Source: Promethearchaeati archaeon (lineage in GTDB: Archaea; Asgardarchaeota; Heimdallarchaeia; Heimdallarchaeales; Heimdallarchaeaceae). Taken from it: DNA of 25,269 nucleotides. Below the pieces are notes generated by a model, which was not told the origin of the DNA, ran no database searches, and saw only the letters and a list, made by a program, of their open reading frames with translations. Shown piece by piece: positions 7,923 through 14,850 of the stretch. The position numbers and the translations under genes are program-made. The stretch covers positions 1-25,269 of the forward strand of contig JABLTJ010000040.1 of assembly GCA_013166775.1 (NCBI GenBank). The letters run 5' to 3'. Each line of letters opens with the position of its first letter. Positions within the stretch are counted from its first letter, which is position 1.

Positions 7923-8786
7923 ATGAAAGTGAAGATAGTTACAGATTCACATGCATGTCTTCCAATGGAATTCATGAAGAAAGAAAATATTGGTTATCTA
8001 GAGAGTTTAATGATAATCGATGAGAAAGATTACAAAGAATTAAGCGAAATAGATAGAAATGATTTCATTAAGCAAATACCTCTTTTTAATCCTTACCCAA
8101 AAACATCAATTGGTAGTCCACAACATGCTTTGGATATCTTTGAACAAGCAATAAAGGAAGGATATAAAGAAATATTCTACATCGGTGTTTCTCCTACAAT
8201 ATCAAATCAATACAATTCTGCGAAAGTAGCTGCGAAAAAAATTAATGATAAAATTAATGTTACACTCTATGAATGTGGATTAAGCACAGCAAGTCAAGGA
8301 GCTCTTGTCTTAAATGCAGTAAAACTACTTAAGAAGGGAAGAAACGTTTCAGAAGTTATAGAGGAATTAAATAAACTAAAACAACATACACATACATTGG
8401 GAATGTCCCAATCTTTTGAAGCTCTATTCAAAACTGGAAAAATCCAGAAAAAAATGTCTTTAAATGTGATATCAAAATTGATGAAACTAAAACCTATGTT
8501 TGAGGTTATCCTCGATGAAGGAGTCCAAAGCCGAGGAGCAGGAAAAGGAAACAAAAGTGCTTTACAAAAAGTATATGAAAGACTAGAAGAATTAGCTCAA
8601 GAGGGAACTGAGTATGATTTGTTTTTGAGTGATGTAAATAATACTCATCATTTTAAGACAATAGAAGAGGAACTTGGGAAAGTTATGTCAATCAAAGATG
8701 TTCATTATTGGAAAATACCTCCGGTAGTAATTCACTCATTAGGAACAGAAAGTGTTCAAGTTACTATCTCCCCGCATGTCAATTAA
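7923..8786 (+). CDS. DegV/FakB family fatty-acid-binding protein
   Basis: MKVKIVTDS N-terminus, PKTS, SPTISNQYNSA, LKP and C-terminal HSLG. ATG at 7923 is preferred over the TTG at 7872 because a TATA-like TTTTAAAA lies about 25 nt upstream. Confidence 0.88.
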   Translation: MKVKIVTDSHACLPMEFMKKENIGYLESLMIIDEKDYKELSEIDRNDFIKQIPLFNPYPKTSIGSPQHALDIFEQAIKEGYKEIFYIGVSPTISNQYNSAKVAAKKINDKINVTLYECGLSTASQGALVLNAVKLLKKGRNVSEVIEELNKLKQHTHTLGMSQSFEALFKTGKIQKKMSLNVISKLMKLKPMFEVILDEGVQSRGAGKGNKSALQKVYERLEELAQEGTEYDLFLSDVNNTHHFKTIEEELGKVMSIKDVHYWKIPPVVIHSLGTESVQVTISPHVN

Positions 8787-8830
8787 CTTTATTAAAAAGC
8801 GATACAGAATTCACTATACATTGCTGTAAG

Positions 8831-9694
8831 ATGTTGAAATCCTTGACGTTCGAAGATGAATATCCACAAGAAATGCTTTTCCTAGAAAATGCAACTAAAG
8901 AATACATTCTGATGTCTGATGAACAGGAAATATTCTGTTATCATTCTATTGATAAGAAAGATTCTAATAAATTTACAATCCTTTTTATTCAAGGATTTGG
9001 ATCTGGTGTCTACTCCTGGACAGATTTGTGGGATGAGTTGAATAAAGAGTTTAATTTAATCGTTTTAGATCCAAGAGATAAAGAAACTGTGAAACTAAAC
9101 AAAAAGAAAAAGTGCACTGTTCAAAGGATAGCTCTGGACATAGCTGAAGTTGCGCATTATTTCAAAATTGATAAAGAAAAACTGATACTTTTCGGATCAA
9201 GCATCGGAGCTTCTTATATTGCTAATAGTTTAAGAAGAAGATTAATTGACCCAAAATGCTGTTTTTTTGCTGGACCATCAGTAAAACCTAGAAATCCAAA
9301 GTTTTTACTTAAACTAGCAATAATTCTTCCATCCAACATTGTAGATATAGTTGGTAAATTTGTAGGAAGAAAGTATCTAAGAAACAAAGTAGCTGAGGGA
9401 TTTCAGAGAAAAGTATTCTATAAAAGACTTGAGAAAATTGATGTTAGGAGATGGAAAAGATGTATTAGAATCCATAATTATATTGCAGATGAGGACTTTA
9501 ACGCAATAGAATGTCCAGTTTATATAATAACTACAAAGGGAGATAAATATCATCACTTAGAATCAGTTCAAGAAGTACATGAACTAATTGAGAACAGTAC
9601 GATTGTGGACGTACCTAGTTATGAATATTATCACACAAAACCAGGAGTGATGGAATTTACAGAACGTATTTCTAAACTAATTTATGAACGATAA
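8831..9694 (+). CDS. Alpha/beta hydrolase, paralog 2
   Basis: FIQGFG, LDPR, GSSIG nucleophile elbow, DKYH and YYHT; clearly similar to 6938..7816. ATG at 8831 chosen because the track's 8708 start overlaps DegV. Confidence 0.82.
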   Translation: MLKSLTFEDEYPQEMLFLENATKEYILMSDEQEIFCYHSIDKKDSNKFTILFIQGFGSGVYSWTDLWDELNKEFNLIVLDPRDKETVKLNKKKKCTVQRIALDIAEVAHYFKIDKEKLILFGSSIGASYIANSLRRRLIDPKCCFFAGPSVKPRNPKFLLKLAIILPSNIVDIVGKFVGRKYLRNKVAEGFQRKVFYKRLEKIDVRRWKRCIRIHNYIADEDFNAIECPVYIITTKGDKYHHLESVQEVHELIENSTIVDVPSYEYYHTKPGVMEFTERISKLIYER

Positions 9695-9762
9695 ATATTC
9701 CAATTTAAGCATTTTTTACAAGTAAATTTATAAGATAGTCTGTGAGTAACGGAACGTTAATC

Positions 9763-11247
9763 ATGAGTTTGGTTGAAAAAACAAGTAAAAAAAATGTTTT
9801 ACTCTTTTCGTTCTATGATATTGCAAATACTGTTTATTCGCAAATTATTCAATCAACGATTATACTTAGGTATATCCAAATTATAGGACAAAAAGAACGG
9901 GGAATGAGTTATGATCAAGCTTATATGGTTTTTACTACAATCCAAGCATTAAGCCAAATTCTAGTAATTGCTCTAATACCCTTAATAGGAGCTATGATAG
10001 ATAGAACAGGAAGGAAAAAACCATTTGTTATAACTATCACAGGTGTTACACTAATTTCTACAGCTTTATTCTGGATACGGAAAAATATAGCAATCGTTAT
10101 GACGTTATTTATCTTAGCAAATCTTGCTTACTGGGCTGCATTATCAGCTTATGATGCAATGATACCTGCATTATCCGCTGAAAAAGATATAGGAAAAACG
10201 TCAGGTGTCGCAATGGGATTAGGTTGGATAAGTATAATCCCTGCATTAGGCATAACACTCTTAGCAGCATGGAAATGGGGAGAACCAAACGCAGATCCAA
10301 ATGCTGTAAATGAATTTGGTGAAGCAATTCCATTGGAATATGGATATTATGATGTTCCTTGGACATACATACTGACGGTACTACTTTTCATAGTATTTAT
10401 GATACCGTTCTTTTTCTCAAAAGAGAAAACAAGAAAAGGTAAAATGCCTAAATTCAAGGAACTCATGAGTGATTCTTTTGGACAGCTTTATCGAACTTTT
10501 AGAGATGTTCGAAAACACAAAGAGATGTTCAAATTCATAATAGGTTACTTCTTCATAGTAGATGTTGCTAACACGGCAAATCTGGTACTACTTAATGTAC
10601 TGCGGGATGCAGTTGGTTTTGGTGAATCTCAATCATTGATTCTTGAGATACCAGTAGTAGCGCTTGCAATTTTCATTATCCCATTAATAGGCTGGTTAGG
10701 AGATAAAATTGGACCAAAGTCAACTATATGGTCTGTTGCAGGATTATATTTTGTAGGTTTCATCTGTGGTATTTGCGCTATTTGGTTTGGAGGAAAGAAC
10801 ATTGATGTTGGCTTCAATCTGCTATTCATCCTGTGTTTATTCATGATGATTGGAGTTGGAGTTGGATTAGGTTCCACTTGGGTTGTGCAAAGAGTAATGA
10901 TATTGAAACTTGCACCGCCAGACAAAGTAGGAGAATATGTAGGTTTTTCATACATAGCTGGTCGGATGAATGCTGCTGCTGCTATTTTCATATGGGGAGG
11001 TATAATTGCTATCTTCTATCCAATATTTGATGCTAGAGGAACTGATTACAGAACATATTCCGTAGGTCTGATGTTCTTATTAGTTTTGTTAATTATAGGA
11101 CTGATTATAGTCTACTTCGTAAAAGTACCAAAAGATGAAGAAAGGAAAAAATGGGCTGAAGAATACCTGCGAGATGGTATGAGAACTCAAACAGAGAGAG
11201 AAAAAGGAAAAATAGCACCAACTGATGATTCAACTACGGGTGACTAA
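9763..11247 (+). CDS. MFS transporter, UMF1/BtlA/Atg22-like
   Basis: About 12 TM helices; FYDIANTVYS, GAMIDRTGRKK, YDAMIP, GWLGDKIGPK and LAPPDKVGEYVGF motifs. ATG at 9763 lies about 30 nt after TTTATAA (track start is GTG 9742). Confidence 0.87.
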   Translation: MSLVEKTSKKNVLLFSFYDIANTVYSQIIQSTIILRYIQIIGQKERGMSYDQAYMVFTTIQALSQILVIALIPLIGAMIDRTGRKKPFVITITGVTLISTALFWIRKNIAIVMTLFILANLAYWAALSAYDAMIPALSAEKDIGKTSGVAMGLGWISIIPALGITLLAAWKWGEPNADPNAVNEFGEAIPLEYGYYDVPWTYILTVLLFIVFMIPFFFSKEKTRKGKMPKFKELMSDSFGQLYRTFRDVRKHKEMFKFIIGYFFIVDVANTANLVLLNVLRDAVGFGESQSLILEIPVVALAIFIIPLIGWLGDKIGPKSTIWSVAGLYFVGFICGICAIWFGGKNIDVGFNLLFILCLFMMIGVGVGLGSTWVVQRVMILKLAPPDKVGEYVGFSYIAGRMNAAAAIFIWGGIIAIFYPIFDARGTDYRTYSVGLMFLLVLLIIGLIIVYFVKVPKDEERKKWAEEYLRDGMRTQTEREKGKIAPTDDSTTGD

Positions 11248-11336
11248 ACATAAAAATTACTCTTTTTTTCTTTTATTTCTACTATCCTCGATAATATGGA
11301 AATTCTTTTTTAGTTGAATGTCAAAAGACCTATATC

Positions 11337-12383
11337 TTGAAATCCAGCATTGCTTTAAAGAGAGTTCTACAACTTATTTTTATTTTATCTCTAATATTAT
11401 CCTTAATCTCAGGAATGATTAATGCAAAAACTTCTGATACAAATGAAAAGATACAACCATCTCAATCTAATGATTTACTAGTAAGATCTCATCAAACTGA
11501 AATTGATATTTACTCTCCTCAATCATTAATAGTAACTGAAACTTTTTCGATTCAGAATTTGAACACAACAATTACATCCTCTGTAGATCTGTGGCTAAAT
11601 CATTCGCTAAATACACTAGTTGTTGAGGATGTTGAAGGAGCGTTGGATTATGACTGGATTCCTGTTTCTAATGAAACACATTTTGTATCTGTAGACTTTC
11701 GAACACCATTGGAGCAAAACGATACATCCATCTTCAGCATAAGCTACAATCTTGACACAGAATTGATTTTAACTGAAAGTGAACCTTCCTTTTATTCATT
11801 CGAGTTTTACTCAACTATATCTCACTATACAAGAAAATATGCAATGTCAATGATTTTACCCGAACTAAGTTTTATTCATGAGAGTGAAGGAATTTCACCA
11901 TTTTATCCTGCTAATGCAACTCAAATTCTAATAAAGAATAGAATTGTTATATCATGGATTTATAATAATATAAGTCAAGCTTCTGAACCATTTTTCTTAC
12001 TAAGATTCGATGAGCCTATAATTCCAGAAACTGATGAACCCTTCTTTAAATCATCTTTCAATGTGTTCTTAATGGGAATATTTACAGGTATATTTCTAGG
12101 AATAAGTGGAACTTCATGGCTGATTAGGTACAGAGAAAAGAAAGCTATGAAAAAACTGGGAAGAACTCTTTTAACAGATACACAGAAAGCTCTGATAAAG
12201 ATAGTTTATGAGAAAGAAGGAAAAATTTCACAAAGAGATCTATGTGACACAACAGGTTTCTCAAAATCAAAAGTTTCTCGTAATCTTGTACCTCTCGAAA
12301 TGCGAGGATTGATTAGACGAGAAAAATGGGGGAGAACTTATGTAGTTTATCTAACCGATGATGGTAGAACAGTTATAGAGTAA
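11337..12383 (+). CDS. Membrane-anchored winged-HTH protein (COG2512-like): signal/TM, extracellular domain, TM, cytoplasmic MarR-like wHTH
   Basis: N-terminal hydrophobic stretch; about 210 aa with several N-X-S/T sequons (NTT, NHS, NET, NDT, NAT, NIS); TM VFLMGIFTGIFLGISGTSWLI; then LTDTQKALIKIV...ISQRDLCDTTGFSKSKVSRNLVPLEMRGLIRREKWGRT. Confidence 0.85.
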   Translation: MKSSIALKRVLQLIFILSLILSLISGMINAKTSDTNEKIQPSQSNDLLVRSHQTEIDIYSPQSLIVTETFSIQNLNTTITSSVDLWLNHSLNTLVVEDVEGALDYDWIPVSNETHFVSVDFRTPLEQNDTSIFSISYNLDTELILTESEPSFYSFEFYSTISHYTRKYAMSMILPELSFIHESEGISPFYPANATQILIKNRIVISWIYNNISQASEPFFLLRFDEPIIPETDEPFFKSSFNVFLMGIFTGIFLGISGTSWLIRYREKKAMKKLGRTLLTDTQKALIKIVYEKEGKISQRDLCDTTGFSKSKVSRNLVPLEMRGLIRREKWGRTYVVYLTDDGRTVIE

Positions 12384-12534
12384 AAGAAAGAAAAGATTTT
12401 TTTTAAAAGAAACTCCTATTGGATGCTATTTGTTATTAATTGAGCGTTCCTATCAAAGTAATCAAGCTCTAGATAAGTTTCAACTTGTCCTCGATCATCA
12501 ACCCGCTAAATCAGGTTTGATATCGAAGTTGGAA

Positions 12535-12604
12535 GTTTTTCAAATCGTTGCCAACTGTTGCCAACTCGTCTCAAACCGCCGCAAAACCGATTCTTCATTA
12601 ATAA
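12535..12604 (+). promoter_or_regulatory. Helically phased repeat array followed by a TATA-like box upstream of 12633
   Basis: Units GTTTTTCAAATC / GTTGCCAACT / GTTGCCAACTC / GTCTCAAACC / GCCGCAAAACC with CAA cores at 12541, 12552, 12562, 12572 and 12582. TTAATAA at 12598-12604; SD-like GGTGAT at 12624-12629. Confidence 0.6.
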
Positions 12605-12632
12605 CCCTCTGCACTAATAGTATGGTGATAAA

Positions 12633-13688
12633 ATGAAAACAACATACAAGTTTTTCATAGTCGGACTGATTGCAATATTCGTTTTGTCTTCCCTTCCCCC
12701 AACAATTGCACAACCACCAGAAGGGAAAATAGAAAATAGAGAAGGATCAGTCTTCATTGAGACTCCAGATATTAAAGTAAAATTACTAGCTGGTAAACCT
12801 GATATATTTTTCTGGTCAACACAAATGAATCAGAAAAGAAGACAAACAGCGCTATTTCATGTGGGCTTTTATTATTTAGCTGAATTATTCGGTGATGACT
12901 TAGTAATAGATAATAGACAAGAACTTGGTGGTAAGATATATAATCTTGCTTCAAGTGCGGTTGAATGGACATTAGAAATAGAAGAAGATACAGGAGATCC
13001 AAATCATATTATGGCCACTCAAACATCATCAGCTCTTGCAGATGGTGCAACAATTACATTTGTTTATCATATCTATCTTGAAGATACAATAATAACTGAA
13101 ACTCTAGATGATGAAACTGTTACTTATGAAGCTAAGGCATTATCTGAAATTAAATTCGATATTATAGTTAATAATTGGGTTTTCTCCCCTGAAGCAACAG
13201 GATTAGCTTTGCATGTTAAAATTCATGAAATGCAATATAGGCATAGAGTAAGAAAAGGAGAAAGAGTCAACGCTCCAGAAGAAGGTTACAAAATAAATGA
13301 AACTGAATCAGATAGAACAAATCGTTCAACTGAACCTGGGAGATATGGTGTAGAATTTCTTGATGGTGATGATAGAAGAGCTTATTTTGCCTGGACCCCA
13401 GAAGCTGATGTTTTCGATGAAAATGGTACATATATTGAGACTGTACAATGCACTGCTTCGTCTGCAAGTTACGGTTTTGACAATGATTTTGGAAAAGGTA
13501 AAGAATTTGCAAAAGAATTCATCAATTTATTCTTAGTATATCCTAATTATGGTGATGAAAACAAGCTTGTTCATGATCCTGTTATAGGAATAGATGATGC
13601 AAGTGGTGTTAATTCTTCTTGGTTTGCTCTATTTGCACTTCCAATTATTGCATTTGTAGTTTTGGTAAGGAAAAGAAAGAGAGCTTAA
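12633..13688 (+). CDS. Secreted, C-terminally anchored surface protein of unknown function (probably beta-rich)
   Basis: Signal peptide MKTTYKFFIVGLIAIFVLSSLPPTIA; acidic beta-strand-like body with sequons; C-terminal WFALFALPIIAFVVLV-RKRKRA. Confidence 0.8.
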   Translation: MKTTYKFFIVGLIAIFVLSSLPPTIAQPPEGKIENREGSVFIETPDIKVKLLAGKPDIFFWSTQMNQKRRQTALFHVGFYYLAELFGDDLVIDNRQELGGKIYNLASSAVEWTLEIEEDTGDPNHIMATQTSSALADGATITFVYHIYLEDTIITETLDDETVTYEAKALSEIKFDIIVNNWVFSPEATGLALHVKIHEMQYRHRVRKGERVNAPEEGYKINETESDRTNRSTEPGRYGVEFLDGDDRRAYFAWTPEADVFDENGTYIETVQCTASSASYGFDNDFGKGKEFAKEFINLFLVYPNYGDENKLVHDPVIGIDDASGVNSSWFALFALPIIAFVVLVRKRKRA

Positions 13689-13809: not shown

Positions 13810-14850
13810 ATGAGAAGTAAATCAATAAAATTAATGATACTAGTTCTGGTTGTAACTTCGTTCTCATCTTTTGTACAATCAGGAGAATTCAATGTAAAAG
13901 CACAAAATGAGTCAATAGATCCATGGTATTTTATCGCTTTAGGTGATTCTAGAAATTGGTATGAAAATGAATCAAATCCCTTTAGAGAAGCTATAATAGA
14001 TGATGTTGTGGAAAACAATCCAAACATGGAATTCATTCTACACTCAGGTGATATGGTTCAAAGTGGAGGGGAACAATTAGATTGGGATCGTTATTATGAA
14101 GATATAGATTTAGCAGTTCAGAATGATGTTAAATTCTACTATGCGGTAGGGAATCATGAAATATATACTTATAGGCTTGAAGATGGTTCTTATGGTCCGT
14201 CTCAAACTAATTTCTCAACTTACATGGCAAATGTAGAAATGCCTGGAAATGAAAGATATTACAGTTTCGATTTTAATCAAATACACTTTATTGTAATAAA
14301 TACAGAAGAATTCTGGGATGATGATGATTACTTCTTCGATATTACTACAGAACAAAAAAACTGGATAATTGATGATTTATCTAATGATAACTCTAACTTC
14401 ACAATTGCTCTATTTCATCGACCGATGTATTCTATACGAAGCACTTATAGAGTAGAGAATGCTCAAGAAATAAGTAAAGTTTTAGAACCTATTTTTATAG
14501 AATATGGAGTAGATTTAGTCTTTTCTGGACATGATCATTATTACTATAGGACAACAAGAGACGATATAACACATGTAGTTACAGGAGGATCAGGAGCACC
14601 TTTGTATGATCCTGAAAAAACTGGTCTAGCAATAGAAGGTGATGTTTATTTCGATAAATACCATTATGTGAATGTATCAGTTAAAGATGATGTAATTAAA
14701 CTTGAAACTTTGACTTATACAGGAGACAATATTGAATCTCCATCAATTCAAGATTCTTTTGAAATCAATCTTAATGAAACAGATAAAACAATTTTCTTCC
14801 CAATATTCATCTCTGTAATAATGATCGCACTCTTCAGAAAAAGAAAGTAG
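13810..14850 (+). CDS. Secreted/anchored metallophosphoesterase (purple-acid-phosphatase-like calcineurin fold)
   Basis: GDSR, HSGDMV, GNHE, HRPMY and SGHDHYYYR motifs; signal peptide and C-terminal TM+RKRK. Confidence 0.88.
   Translation: MRSKSIKLMILVLVVTSFSSFVQSGEFNVKAQNESIDPWYFIALGDSRNWYENESNPFREAIIDDVVENNPNMEFILHSGDMVQSGGEQLDWDRYYEDIDLAVQNDVKFYYAVGNHEIYTYRLEDGSYGPSQTNFSTYMANVEMPGNERYYSFDFNQIHFIVINTEEFWDDDDYFFDITTEQKNWIIDDLSNDNSNFTIALFHRPMYSIRSTYRVENAQEISKVLEPIFIEYGVDLVFSGHDHYYYRTTRDDITHVVTGGSGAPLYDPEKTGLAIEGDVYFDKYHYVNVSVKDDVIKLETLTYTGDNIESPSIQDSFEINLNETDKTIFFPIFISVIMIALFRKRK

Follow-up and report, generated by a model that had tools for sequence, protein, structure and literature searches.

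A candidate membrane-bound winged-helix regulator, a phased box array and a GLMP-like surface protein encoded together in Heimdallarchaeia

Can a transcription regulator whose presumptive sensor lies outside the cell control a neighbouring surface-protein gene while it stays anchored in the membrane? This question is raised by two adjacent genes of a Promethearchaeati archaeon (Asgardarchaeota, Heimdallarchaeaceae) on a 25,269-nt stretch of DNA, to which we refer as the window (GenBank assembly GCA_013166775.1, contig JABLTJ010000040.1, positions 1 to 25,269). The window is contig C20 of a metagenome-assembled genome of 3.85 Mb (88.7% complete, about 31% GC). Gene 1 (11337..12383, + strand) starts with TTG and encodes a predicted transmembrane transcription regulator of 348 aa belonging to the DUF7343 family; gene 2 (12633..13688, + strand) encodes a predicted secreted, C-terminally anchored surface protein of 351 aa with a GLMP-like supersandwich ectodomain. 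The spacer between them carries a candidate operator array (12546..12594, + strand), which was recognised by sequence reading, TRF and conservation. We propose, with a probability of roughly 0.55, that the gene 1 product is a transmembrane transcription regulator (TTR) that would bind this array from the membrane and thereby control, probably activate, gene 2. Genes and boxes together form a well-defined and conserved module, whose role is predicted to be regulatory.

The candidate regulator and the surface protein

The AlphaFold2 (AF2) model of the gene 1 protein, built from 33 homologues, reached a mean predicted local distance difference test (pLDDT) value of 84.4 and comprised an all-beta region (aa 47-225), a long helix (aa 240-278) and a winged helix (aa 281-347). 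Hydropathy revealed an N-terminal hydrophobic segment (aa 3-32, 11343..11432, + strand; AF2 helix 3-28), a putative signal peptide or signal anchor, which is kept among homologues and omitted by database gene calls starting at M27 (322 aa). The ectodomain (aa 44-230, 11466..12026, + strand) holds every one of the six N-X-S/T sequons of the protein, and the sequon at N88 was found in 33 of 33 homologues. A transmembrane (TM) helix assigned by hydropathy and AF2 (aa 239-263, 12051..12125, + strand) is followed by the basic sequence RYREKKAMKK on the cytoplasmic side and by a winged helix-turn-helix (wHTH) domain (aa 277-348, 12165..12380, + strand) with the recognition helix SKSKVSRNL and the wing KWGRTYVV. 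Pfam, AF2, hydropathy and the sequons bear out the preliminary description of this DNA, in which gene 1 was read as a sequon-rich ectodomain, one TM helix and a cytoplasmic wHTH.

The wHTH is the most conserved portion of the protein among homologues. Pfam models matched it above their cut-offs at aa 278-339, with DUF7343 (46.5 bits, cut-off 27.6; E 3.4e-12) ahead of MarR_2 (30 bits, cut-off 27; E 6e-7) and HTH_24 (24.3 bits, cut-off 21.9). In agreement with these assignments, the domain superposed on MarR and on the HpaR-DNA complex with Z scores of about 13.3-13.5 and a root-mean-square deviation (rmsd) of 1.1 Å over 71 aa. The structure alignment contains the MarR wHTH core and lacks the N- and C-terminal dimer-interface helices, as only MarR residues ~36-109 align; the gene 1 protein ends in the wing and one short helix. 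A predicted DNA-binding domain and at least one predicted TM region were found in one protein, the combination that characterises TTRs.

In structure comparison the ectodomain came closest to Ost1 of yeast and ribophorin I of human, namely to their lumenal domain next to the membrane (Z 18.3-18.9, rmsd about 2.2 Å, about 178 residues). The top match superposed on residues 228-448 of 6ezn_A with a VIA Z score of 18.9 and an rmsd of 2.2 Å over 176 aa, and all top eight fold matches were Ost1 or ribophorin I (RPN1; Foldseek E 2.8e-10), followed by the N-domain of LTA4H and other M1 aminopeptidases (Z 14.4). The Pfam family Ribophorin_I (PF04597) gave no match in gene 1 at E-values up to 0.1. The genome also encodes a bona fide Ribophorin_I protein (PF04597) of 698 aa (G000:C54:33330-35426, L073:334-2430), in which only aa 390-537 match the Pfam model, at positions 291-435 of the hidden Markov model. 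Alignment of gene 1 with this protein by hhalign was weak (40% probability, E 3e-4, 66 columns) and fell in the equivalent region.

This likeness offers another explanation of gene 1, namely that it encodes a ribophorin-like accessory of glycosylation or translocation whose winged helix would dock on ribosomes or RNA like the cytosolic domain of mammalian ribophorin I. Such a role would fit the best ectodomain match and the placement of the beta-sandwich directly before a single TM helix, which is the same in both proteins. However, Ost1 and ribophorin I possess two tandem lumenal beta-sandwich domains and gene 1 only one (~185 aa), and its cytoplasmic part differs from theirs in being a canonical MarR-type DNA-binding wHTH. 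Moreover, the genome has its separate, Pfam-level Ribophorin_I protein, and several gene 1 paralogues occur per genome, each next to another surface-protein gene that has a set of boxes to itself. We consider this explanation very improbable.

The gene 2 protein begins with a signal-like helix, continues as a beta-rich ectodomain and closes with a TM helix and RKRKRA (AF2 pLDDT 75.6), and its earlier reading as a secreted, C-terminally anchored protein held. Neither Pfam nor NCBIfam assigns it to a family, a search of the PDB with a 21-homologue profile gave no sequence match at E-values up to 10, and the homologues are all annotated as hypothetical proteins of Heimdallarchaeia. In structure comparison, the ectodomain matched the luminal domain of GLMP (6nyq_C; VIA Z 18.4, rmsd 3.5 Å over 240 aa), and the match to 8r8q_B from the MFSD1-GLMP complex extended over 264 residues including the TM helix (Z 17.2). 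Galactose-mutarotase-like supersandwiches of glycoside hydrolases and lyases ranked lower, with Z scores up to 14.0. GLMP is the accessory subunit of the major facilitator superfamily (MFS) transporter MFSD1 and resembles gene 2 both in its luminal supersandwich and in its type I arrangement, in which the TM helix stands at the C-terminus. Supersandwich folds are common among carbohydrate-active enzymes.

An MFS transporter gene (9742-11247, + strand) is located directly 5' of gene 1 in the window and in about 11 orthologous loci. Its product is Atg22/UMF1-like and has no detectable link to MFSD1, the partner of GLMP; a search with the transporter found no PDB sequence match of note. The synteny is partial, as the gene is absent from the other orthologous loci, where the upstream neighbour of gene 1 is an alpha/beta hydrolase resembling the one encoded at 8708-9694 (+ strand).

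Conservation of the pair was examined in 30 genomes of the same family. Orthologues of gene 1 were found in 29 of these and orthologues of gene 2 in all 30, and gene order was scored in 28 orthologous loci. Gene 2 lies directly 3' of gene 1 on the same strand in 27 of the 28; the sole exception is genome G006, in which a hydrolase gene intervenes and the contig ends. In another Heimdallarchaeial family (G048, G054, G058 and G060) the order is reversed, with a gene-2-like gene preceding a gene-1-like gene, often in tandem duplication. The pair is therefore kept across Heimdallarchaeia in both gene orders, and the proposal of the preliminary description, which a lack of conserved synteny would have refuted, survived this check. 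Homologues are named, for example, Candidatus Heimdallarchaeaceae. Relatives with 80-90% identity that are known as proteins (P0006/P0084) did not turn up in a metagenome scan, which yielded only further loci at 55-60% identity.

Phased boxes in the spacer

With 249 nt, the spacer between gene 1 and gene 2 is two to three times as long as in most orthologues (88-123 nt). Using tblastn and DNA alignment, we identified at 12422..12544 (- strand) a relic of an alpha/beta-hydrolase gene, of which the final 41 codons, interrupted by an in-frame stop, are left. The relic shows 61% aa identity to the C-terminus of an intact hydrolase gene in the closest relative, G006 (L005:2574-3281, - strand; tblastn E 9e-15); a stop codon replaces a tryptophan, the other 194 codons are gone, and there is no intact copy elsewhere in the genome to which the window belongs. 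In G006, whose gene 1 is 86% identical to that of the window, the intact hydrolase gene, identified by Pfam, is convergent and lies between gene 1 and the contig end. Hydrolase homology ends at 12544, exactly at the start of the array, which means that the deletion edge is also the array edge.

The relic accounts for a GC-richer patch, a spurious open reading frame of 68 aa and a weak snoRNA-like Rfam match in the spacer. This match, to snoZ223 on the minus strand (12461-12556), lies within the relic and is sub-threshold (24 bits against a gathering threshold of 45, E 0.18), and an RNA reading of the spacer was rejected; RNA fold z-scores of -1.9 and -2.1 were unremarkable. A near-palindrome at 12475-86 was rejected as an operator, as it sits in former coding sequence, and a 9-nt inverted repeat (12432-40/12597-605), which has one arm in the relic, was taken as chance. 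The preliminary description had placed a helically phased repeat array next to a TATA-like box at 12470-12610. The array proved real at 12546-12594, but the wider interval did not stand, its upstream half being the hydrolase relic.

Four to five boxes resembling CGTTGC, each a helical turn from the next, make up the array on the + strand: CGTTGCC (box 1, 12546-52), TGTTGCC (box 2, 12556-62), CGTCTCA (box 3, 12567-73), CGCCGCA (box 4, 12577-83) and the weak CGATTCT (box 5, 12588-94). Successive box starts are separated by 10, 11, 10 and 11 bp. TRF picked up an exact core of 2 x 10 bp only, and the tandem GTTGCCAAC pair is unique in the 3.85-Mb genome. The array is followed by a TATA-like box of gene 2 (CATTAATAAC, 12596..12605, + strand; TTAATAA at 12598-12604), the counterpart of TCATATA in orthologues; position and conservation point to it as the likely promoter element. 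A Shine-Dalgarno-like GGTGAT (12624..12629, + strand) lies 4 nt before the ATG and recurs in orthologues as GGTGAT or GGTGTT.

Is this arrangement peculiar to the window? The orthologous spacers fall into about eight mutually unalignable groups, each of which carries GTTGC/GTTTC boxes in direct or inverted orientation, spaced by 10-11 or 20-21 bp, at about -105 to -44, with a conserved TCATATA-type box downstream of them, about 38 nt before the start codon. Phased boxes upstream of a TATA-like box were present in every orthologous spacer, so the proposal of the preliminary description also survived the check for a recurring repeat motif in homologous loci, and three metagenome loci showed the same layout with a TCATATA-type box. 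Motif statistics were obtained from nine representative orthologous spacers. In an unbiased count GTTGC was the top-ranked 5-mer (14 occurrences against 0.72 expected, P 6e-14), and the next-ranked 5-mers were overlapping pieces of aCGTT(G/T)CA. GTT[GT]C sites numbered 28 against 2.4 expected (P 2e-20), and the distances between same-strand neighbours were 10 bp (seven times), 11 bp (twice) and 19-21 bp (four times). Turnover of site number and orientation, with motif, phase and position retained, is the look that a functional binding-site cluster would have.

At the level of the whole genome, GTTGC-N5/6-GTTGC occurs five times in 3.85 Mb, and two of these copies lie where a member of the gene 1 family ends (3' end; C20:12547 and C75:23457). 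A genome scan for clusters of at least four GTT[GT]C sites returned mostly coding-sequence noise; the stricter tandem pattern was the informative one. Where the gene order is reversed, a box resembling AAC(C/T)GTTGC stands immediately 5' of a TTTATA box before the gene-2-like gene. Short spacers of such loci (L064, L065 and L068) hold GC-rich hairpins, for example with a 12-bp stem in L065, which may be attenuators or processing sites between genes.

The boxes also accompany paralogues of gene 1. In a paralogous clade with 35-40% identity to gene 1, the regulator gene is followed by a gene for a NosD/right-handed beta-helix membrane protein instead of gene 2, and stop codon, phased boxes, an AT-rich box and the following gene succeed one another as in the gene 1 locus. 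Box type tracks the recognition helix: SKSK(I/T)SRN and KSRISRN occur with GTTGC-type boxes, TR(S/A)KTSRN with CTCCCG/GTCTC-type boxes. This covariation, read from sequence, is suggestive of a link between the regulator family and the boxes.

Three paralogous loci of the same genome deserve mention in their own right. At G000:C75:21967-25941 (L003), which together with loci L075-L094 represents the NosD-paired clade, the regulator frame is extended at its C-terminal end, and this extension contains phased GTTGCA boxes and an AT-rich box, 13 nt before the next gene. The gene-1 paralogue at G000:C14:69304-70293 (L002:1507-2502, - strand) is probably a pseudogene, as its winged helix is interrupted by an in-frame TAA directly behind EKWGRI. 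The pair on contig C8 (G000:C8:6078-9005, L004) shares 92% DNA identity over 2.5 kb, non-coding upstream region included, with contig C95 of G048 (L063), a genome from a different family of the class. As this identity to a genome of another family includes non-coding DNA, contig C8 is probably mis-binned, or else the pair was recently transferred.

Proposed control of gene 2 from the membrane

How could the regulator reach these boxes? In the mechanism which we favour, the gene 1 ectodomain would lie outside the cell, connected by the single TM helix to a MarR-type wHTH located about 15 residues beyond the membrane in the cytoplasm. As only ~15 helical residues separate TM helix and wHTH in the AF2 model, DNA would be bound at the membrane surface. 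Several gene 1 copies would bind the CGTTGC-like boxes at 12546-12594 side by side while they remain tethered; as the boxes are one helical turn apart, all sites would be on one DNA face that can lie against the membrane. From this place directly 5' of the TATA-like box, the regulator would control transcription of gene 2. In the preliminary description the wHTH would, in addition, oligomerise on the array, and the gene 2 product might be its ligand or feedback partner; gene pairing, phased motif and the contrast in topology with ToxR/CadC lend that interpretation partial support.

The phasing also bears on a model of regulated proteolysis, in which a signal would trigger cleavage near the TM helix and release a soluble wHTH, as for SREBP and ATF6 or in regulated intramembrane proteolysis. 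Boxes aligned on one face of the DNA fit a membrane-bound binder, the freed piece of ~85 aa would be without a dimerisation element, and no protease gene is conserved in the locus. Proteolysis has a general precedent among membrane-bound transcription factors, and no support specific to this locus was found. This model appears distinctly improbable to us.

Archaeal activators of the Ptr2 and EarA type are usually positioned where the array lies, on the upstream side of TATA, and for this reason we judge activation of gene 2 to be somewhat likelier than repression. A repressor would use the same boxes: occupancy next to the TFB recognition element (BRE) and TATA box would block TBP/TFB until an external signal relieves it. 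The proximal boxes, which end 3-14 nt from the TATA-like box in the window and in orthologues, would suit such a block, and most characterised MarR-type regulators are repressors. Most boxes, however, are situated far upstream of TATA, at about -105 to -54, as is usual for archaeal activators, and a multi-site upstream array parallels the activator ToxR. Repression by gene 1 thus seems rather unlikely, although it deserves to be taken seriously.

We infer that the gene 1 wHTH is the binder of the boxes, and several observations weigh against this view or against the promoter assignment. The link between regulator and boxes is circumstantial, since co-location does not identify the binder. MarR-type domains normally work as dimers on palindromes, whereas gene 1 in its structural model is without the MarR dimerisation helices. 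Boxes 3 and 4 of the window are degenerate, with 5/7 matches. The covariation of boxes and recognition helices could merely reflect shared descent of neighbouring sequences. The TATA box and transcription start are themselves predictions, and with TATA 32 nt from the ATG, transcription would begin within the Shine-Dalgarno-like GGTGAT. Finally, genome G031 (85% complete) contains gene-2 homologues with an upstream GTTTC-N6-GTTGC pair and no detectable member of the gene-1 family.

The case of G031 would be readily understood if the array, although a true cis-element of gene 2, served as the site of a different, soluble factor, with the gene 1 wHTH acting elsewhere or not on DNA at all. The adjacency of gene 1 and gene 2 would then reflect a protein-level partnership only. 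Against this stands the finding that phased boxes follow gene-1-family genes whatever the next gene encodes, a GLMP-like or a NosD-like protein, and that two of the five genomic GTTGC tandems flank members of this family; incompleteness of G031 might also explain the missing regulator. A soluble factor is in our judgement about as unlikely as repression by gene 1, and binding by gene 1 itself stays the preferred reading.

Faint hints of what gene 1 might sense come from the folds. Its ectodomain has the Ost1/M1-N-domain fold and gene 2 a fold like that of glycan enzymes, which together weakly suggest envelope glycans, glycoproteins or peptides, and our guess is that a glycan, a glycoprotein or the state of envelope proteins would be the signal. 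One can speculate further that a ribophorin-I-derived ectodomain monitors the glycosylation or folding of exported proteins and reports to DNA via its own winged helix, while the GLMP-like target works with the Atg22-like MFS transporter in some lineages. This extended scenario is a long shot. If true, prokaryotic forerunners of eukaryotic endomembrane proteins would be united in one circuit, a kinase-free archaeal counterpart of the signalling from endoplasmic reticulum to nucleus by membrane-bound factors, and the GLMP-like protein with the adjacent Atg22-like MFS transporter would mirror GLMP with MFSD1.

Gene 1 appears to have a promoter of its own. A conserved promoter-like box (ATATGGAAATTCTTTTTTAG, 11294..11313, + strand) about 25 nt before the TTG start is near-identical across orthologous loci of the genus and carries no GTTGC boxes, and autoregulation of gene 1 via the same boxes is therefore unsupported. 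The TTG start is kept in almost all of these loci. A Shine-Dalgarno sequence is not obvious there, and this hints at a message that is leaderless or weakly translated. A separate conserved, box-free promoter and a conserved weak TTG start suggest low constitutive expression of gene 1, fitting a sensor. After gene 1, a run of eight T (12397..12404, + strand) reads as a likely archaeal-type termination signal.

Two further kinds of neighbours were noted. Alpha/beta hydrolases of the 8708-9694 kind turn up repeatedly near the gene pair, including in G006 and G031. On the other side, 13810-14850 (+ strand) encodes a metallophosphoesterase of the calcineurin-like type, which carries a signal peptide and, at its C-terminus, a hydrophobic anchor with FRKRK as the last residues; the gene is syntenic 3' of gene 2 in some relatives (L039, L046 and L043). 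Its anchor is of the gene 2 type, a hydrophobic helix with a proline followed by an R/K cluster, and this common C-terminal signal could be a sorting motif.

Comparison with known systems

How membrane-bound regulators gain access to promoters and control them is poorly understood in bacteria and almost unstudied in archaea. In the archaea most closely related to eukaryotes, the locus offers a compact test system, with a defined regulator, a candidate operator of 50 bp and a target promoter. The candidate operator has a clear consensus and helical phasing, dozens of genomes provide natural variants, and the paralogous clade with other box types allows specificity swaps. The locus also presents an Ost1/ribophorin-I lumenal fold as a presumptive sensor outside the oligosaccharyltransferase (OST) complex, and it adds an archaeal example of a GLMP-like fold; both folds bear on the origin of eukaryotic secretory-pathway proteins. 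Asgard homologues of Ost1 are known (PMC10307638); the literature searched yielded no case in which the Ost1 fold is fused to a wHTH.

Within archaea, gene 1 belongs with the DUF7343 (PF24034) wHTH proteins, a family without described function, whose Pfam model it matches above the curated cut-off; DUF7343 is not mentioned in the literature searched. Atlas clusters of about 280-380 aa with DUF7343 come from Thor-, Heimdall-, Aenigm- and Woesearchaeota, Methanobacteriota, Thermoproteota and Nanobdellota; the ectodomain fold recurs in several of them. ArnR and ArnR1 of Sulfolobus, membrane-bound one-component activators of the archaellum, would resemble gene 1 in serving a surface structure. ArnR combines an N-terminal HTH with HAMP-like and C-terminal TM segments, is not known to have a large ectodomain and belongs to a different family.

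As a class, TTRs contain a DNA-binding domain and at least one TM region in one polypeptide and presumably work on chromosomal DNA while seated in the membrane, as proposed here for gene 1. A survey by Demey et al. (2023) counted 1,384 TTRs in 404 archaeal species, about four per archaeal genome, with single-pass proteins the commonest (PMC10269533). This survey is a census by domain content and does not describe the ectodomain, operator or target of the gene 1 family.

The bacterial regulators ToxR, CadC and TcpP of Gammaproteobacteria differ from gene 1 in several respects. Their wHTH is N-terminal and of the OmpR/PhoB type, and their sensor is C-terminal and unrelated to that of gene 1; the opposite topology stated in the preliminary description is confirmed, the gene 1 wHTH being C-terminal and MarR-like. 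The corresponding Pfam family Trans_reg_C was not among the gene 1 matches at E-values up to 0.1. They act on bacterial RNA polymerase, whereas gene 1 would act on an archaeal TBP/TFB promoter. ToxR binds sites in the toxT promoter that are 10 bp apart, tandem and inverted, and tethers DNA to the membrane (PMC10629549), and CadC operates in a similar manner (PMC5430869). What gene 1 has in common with these proteins is the plan of a one-component membrane sensor-regulator and, with ToxR in particular, several phased sites upstream of a promoter, to which gene 1 is predicted to bind; this likeness is one of mode of action, not of ancestry.

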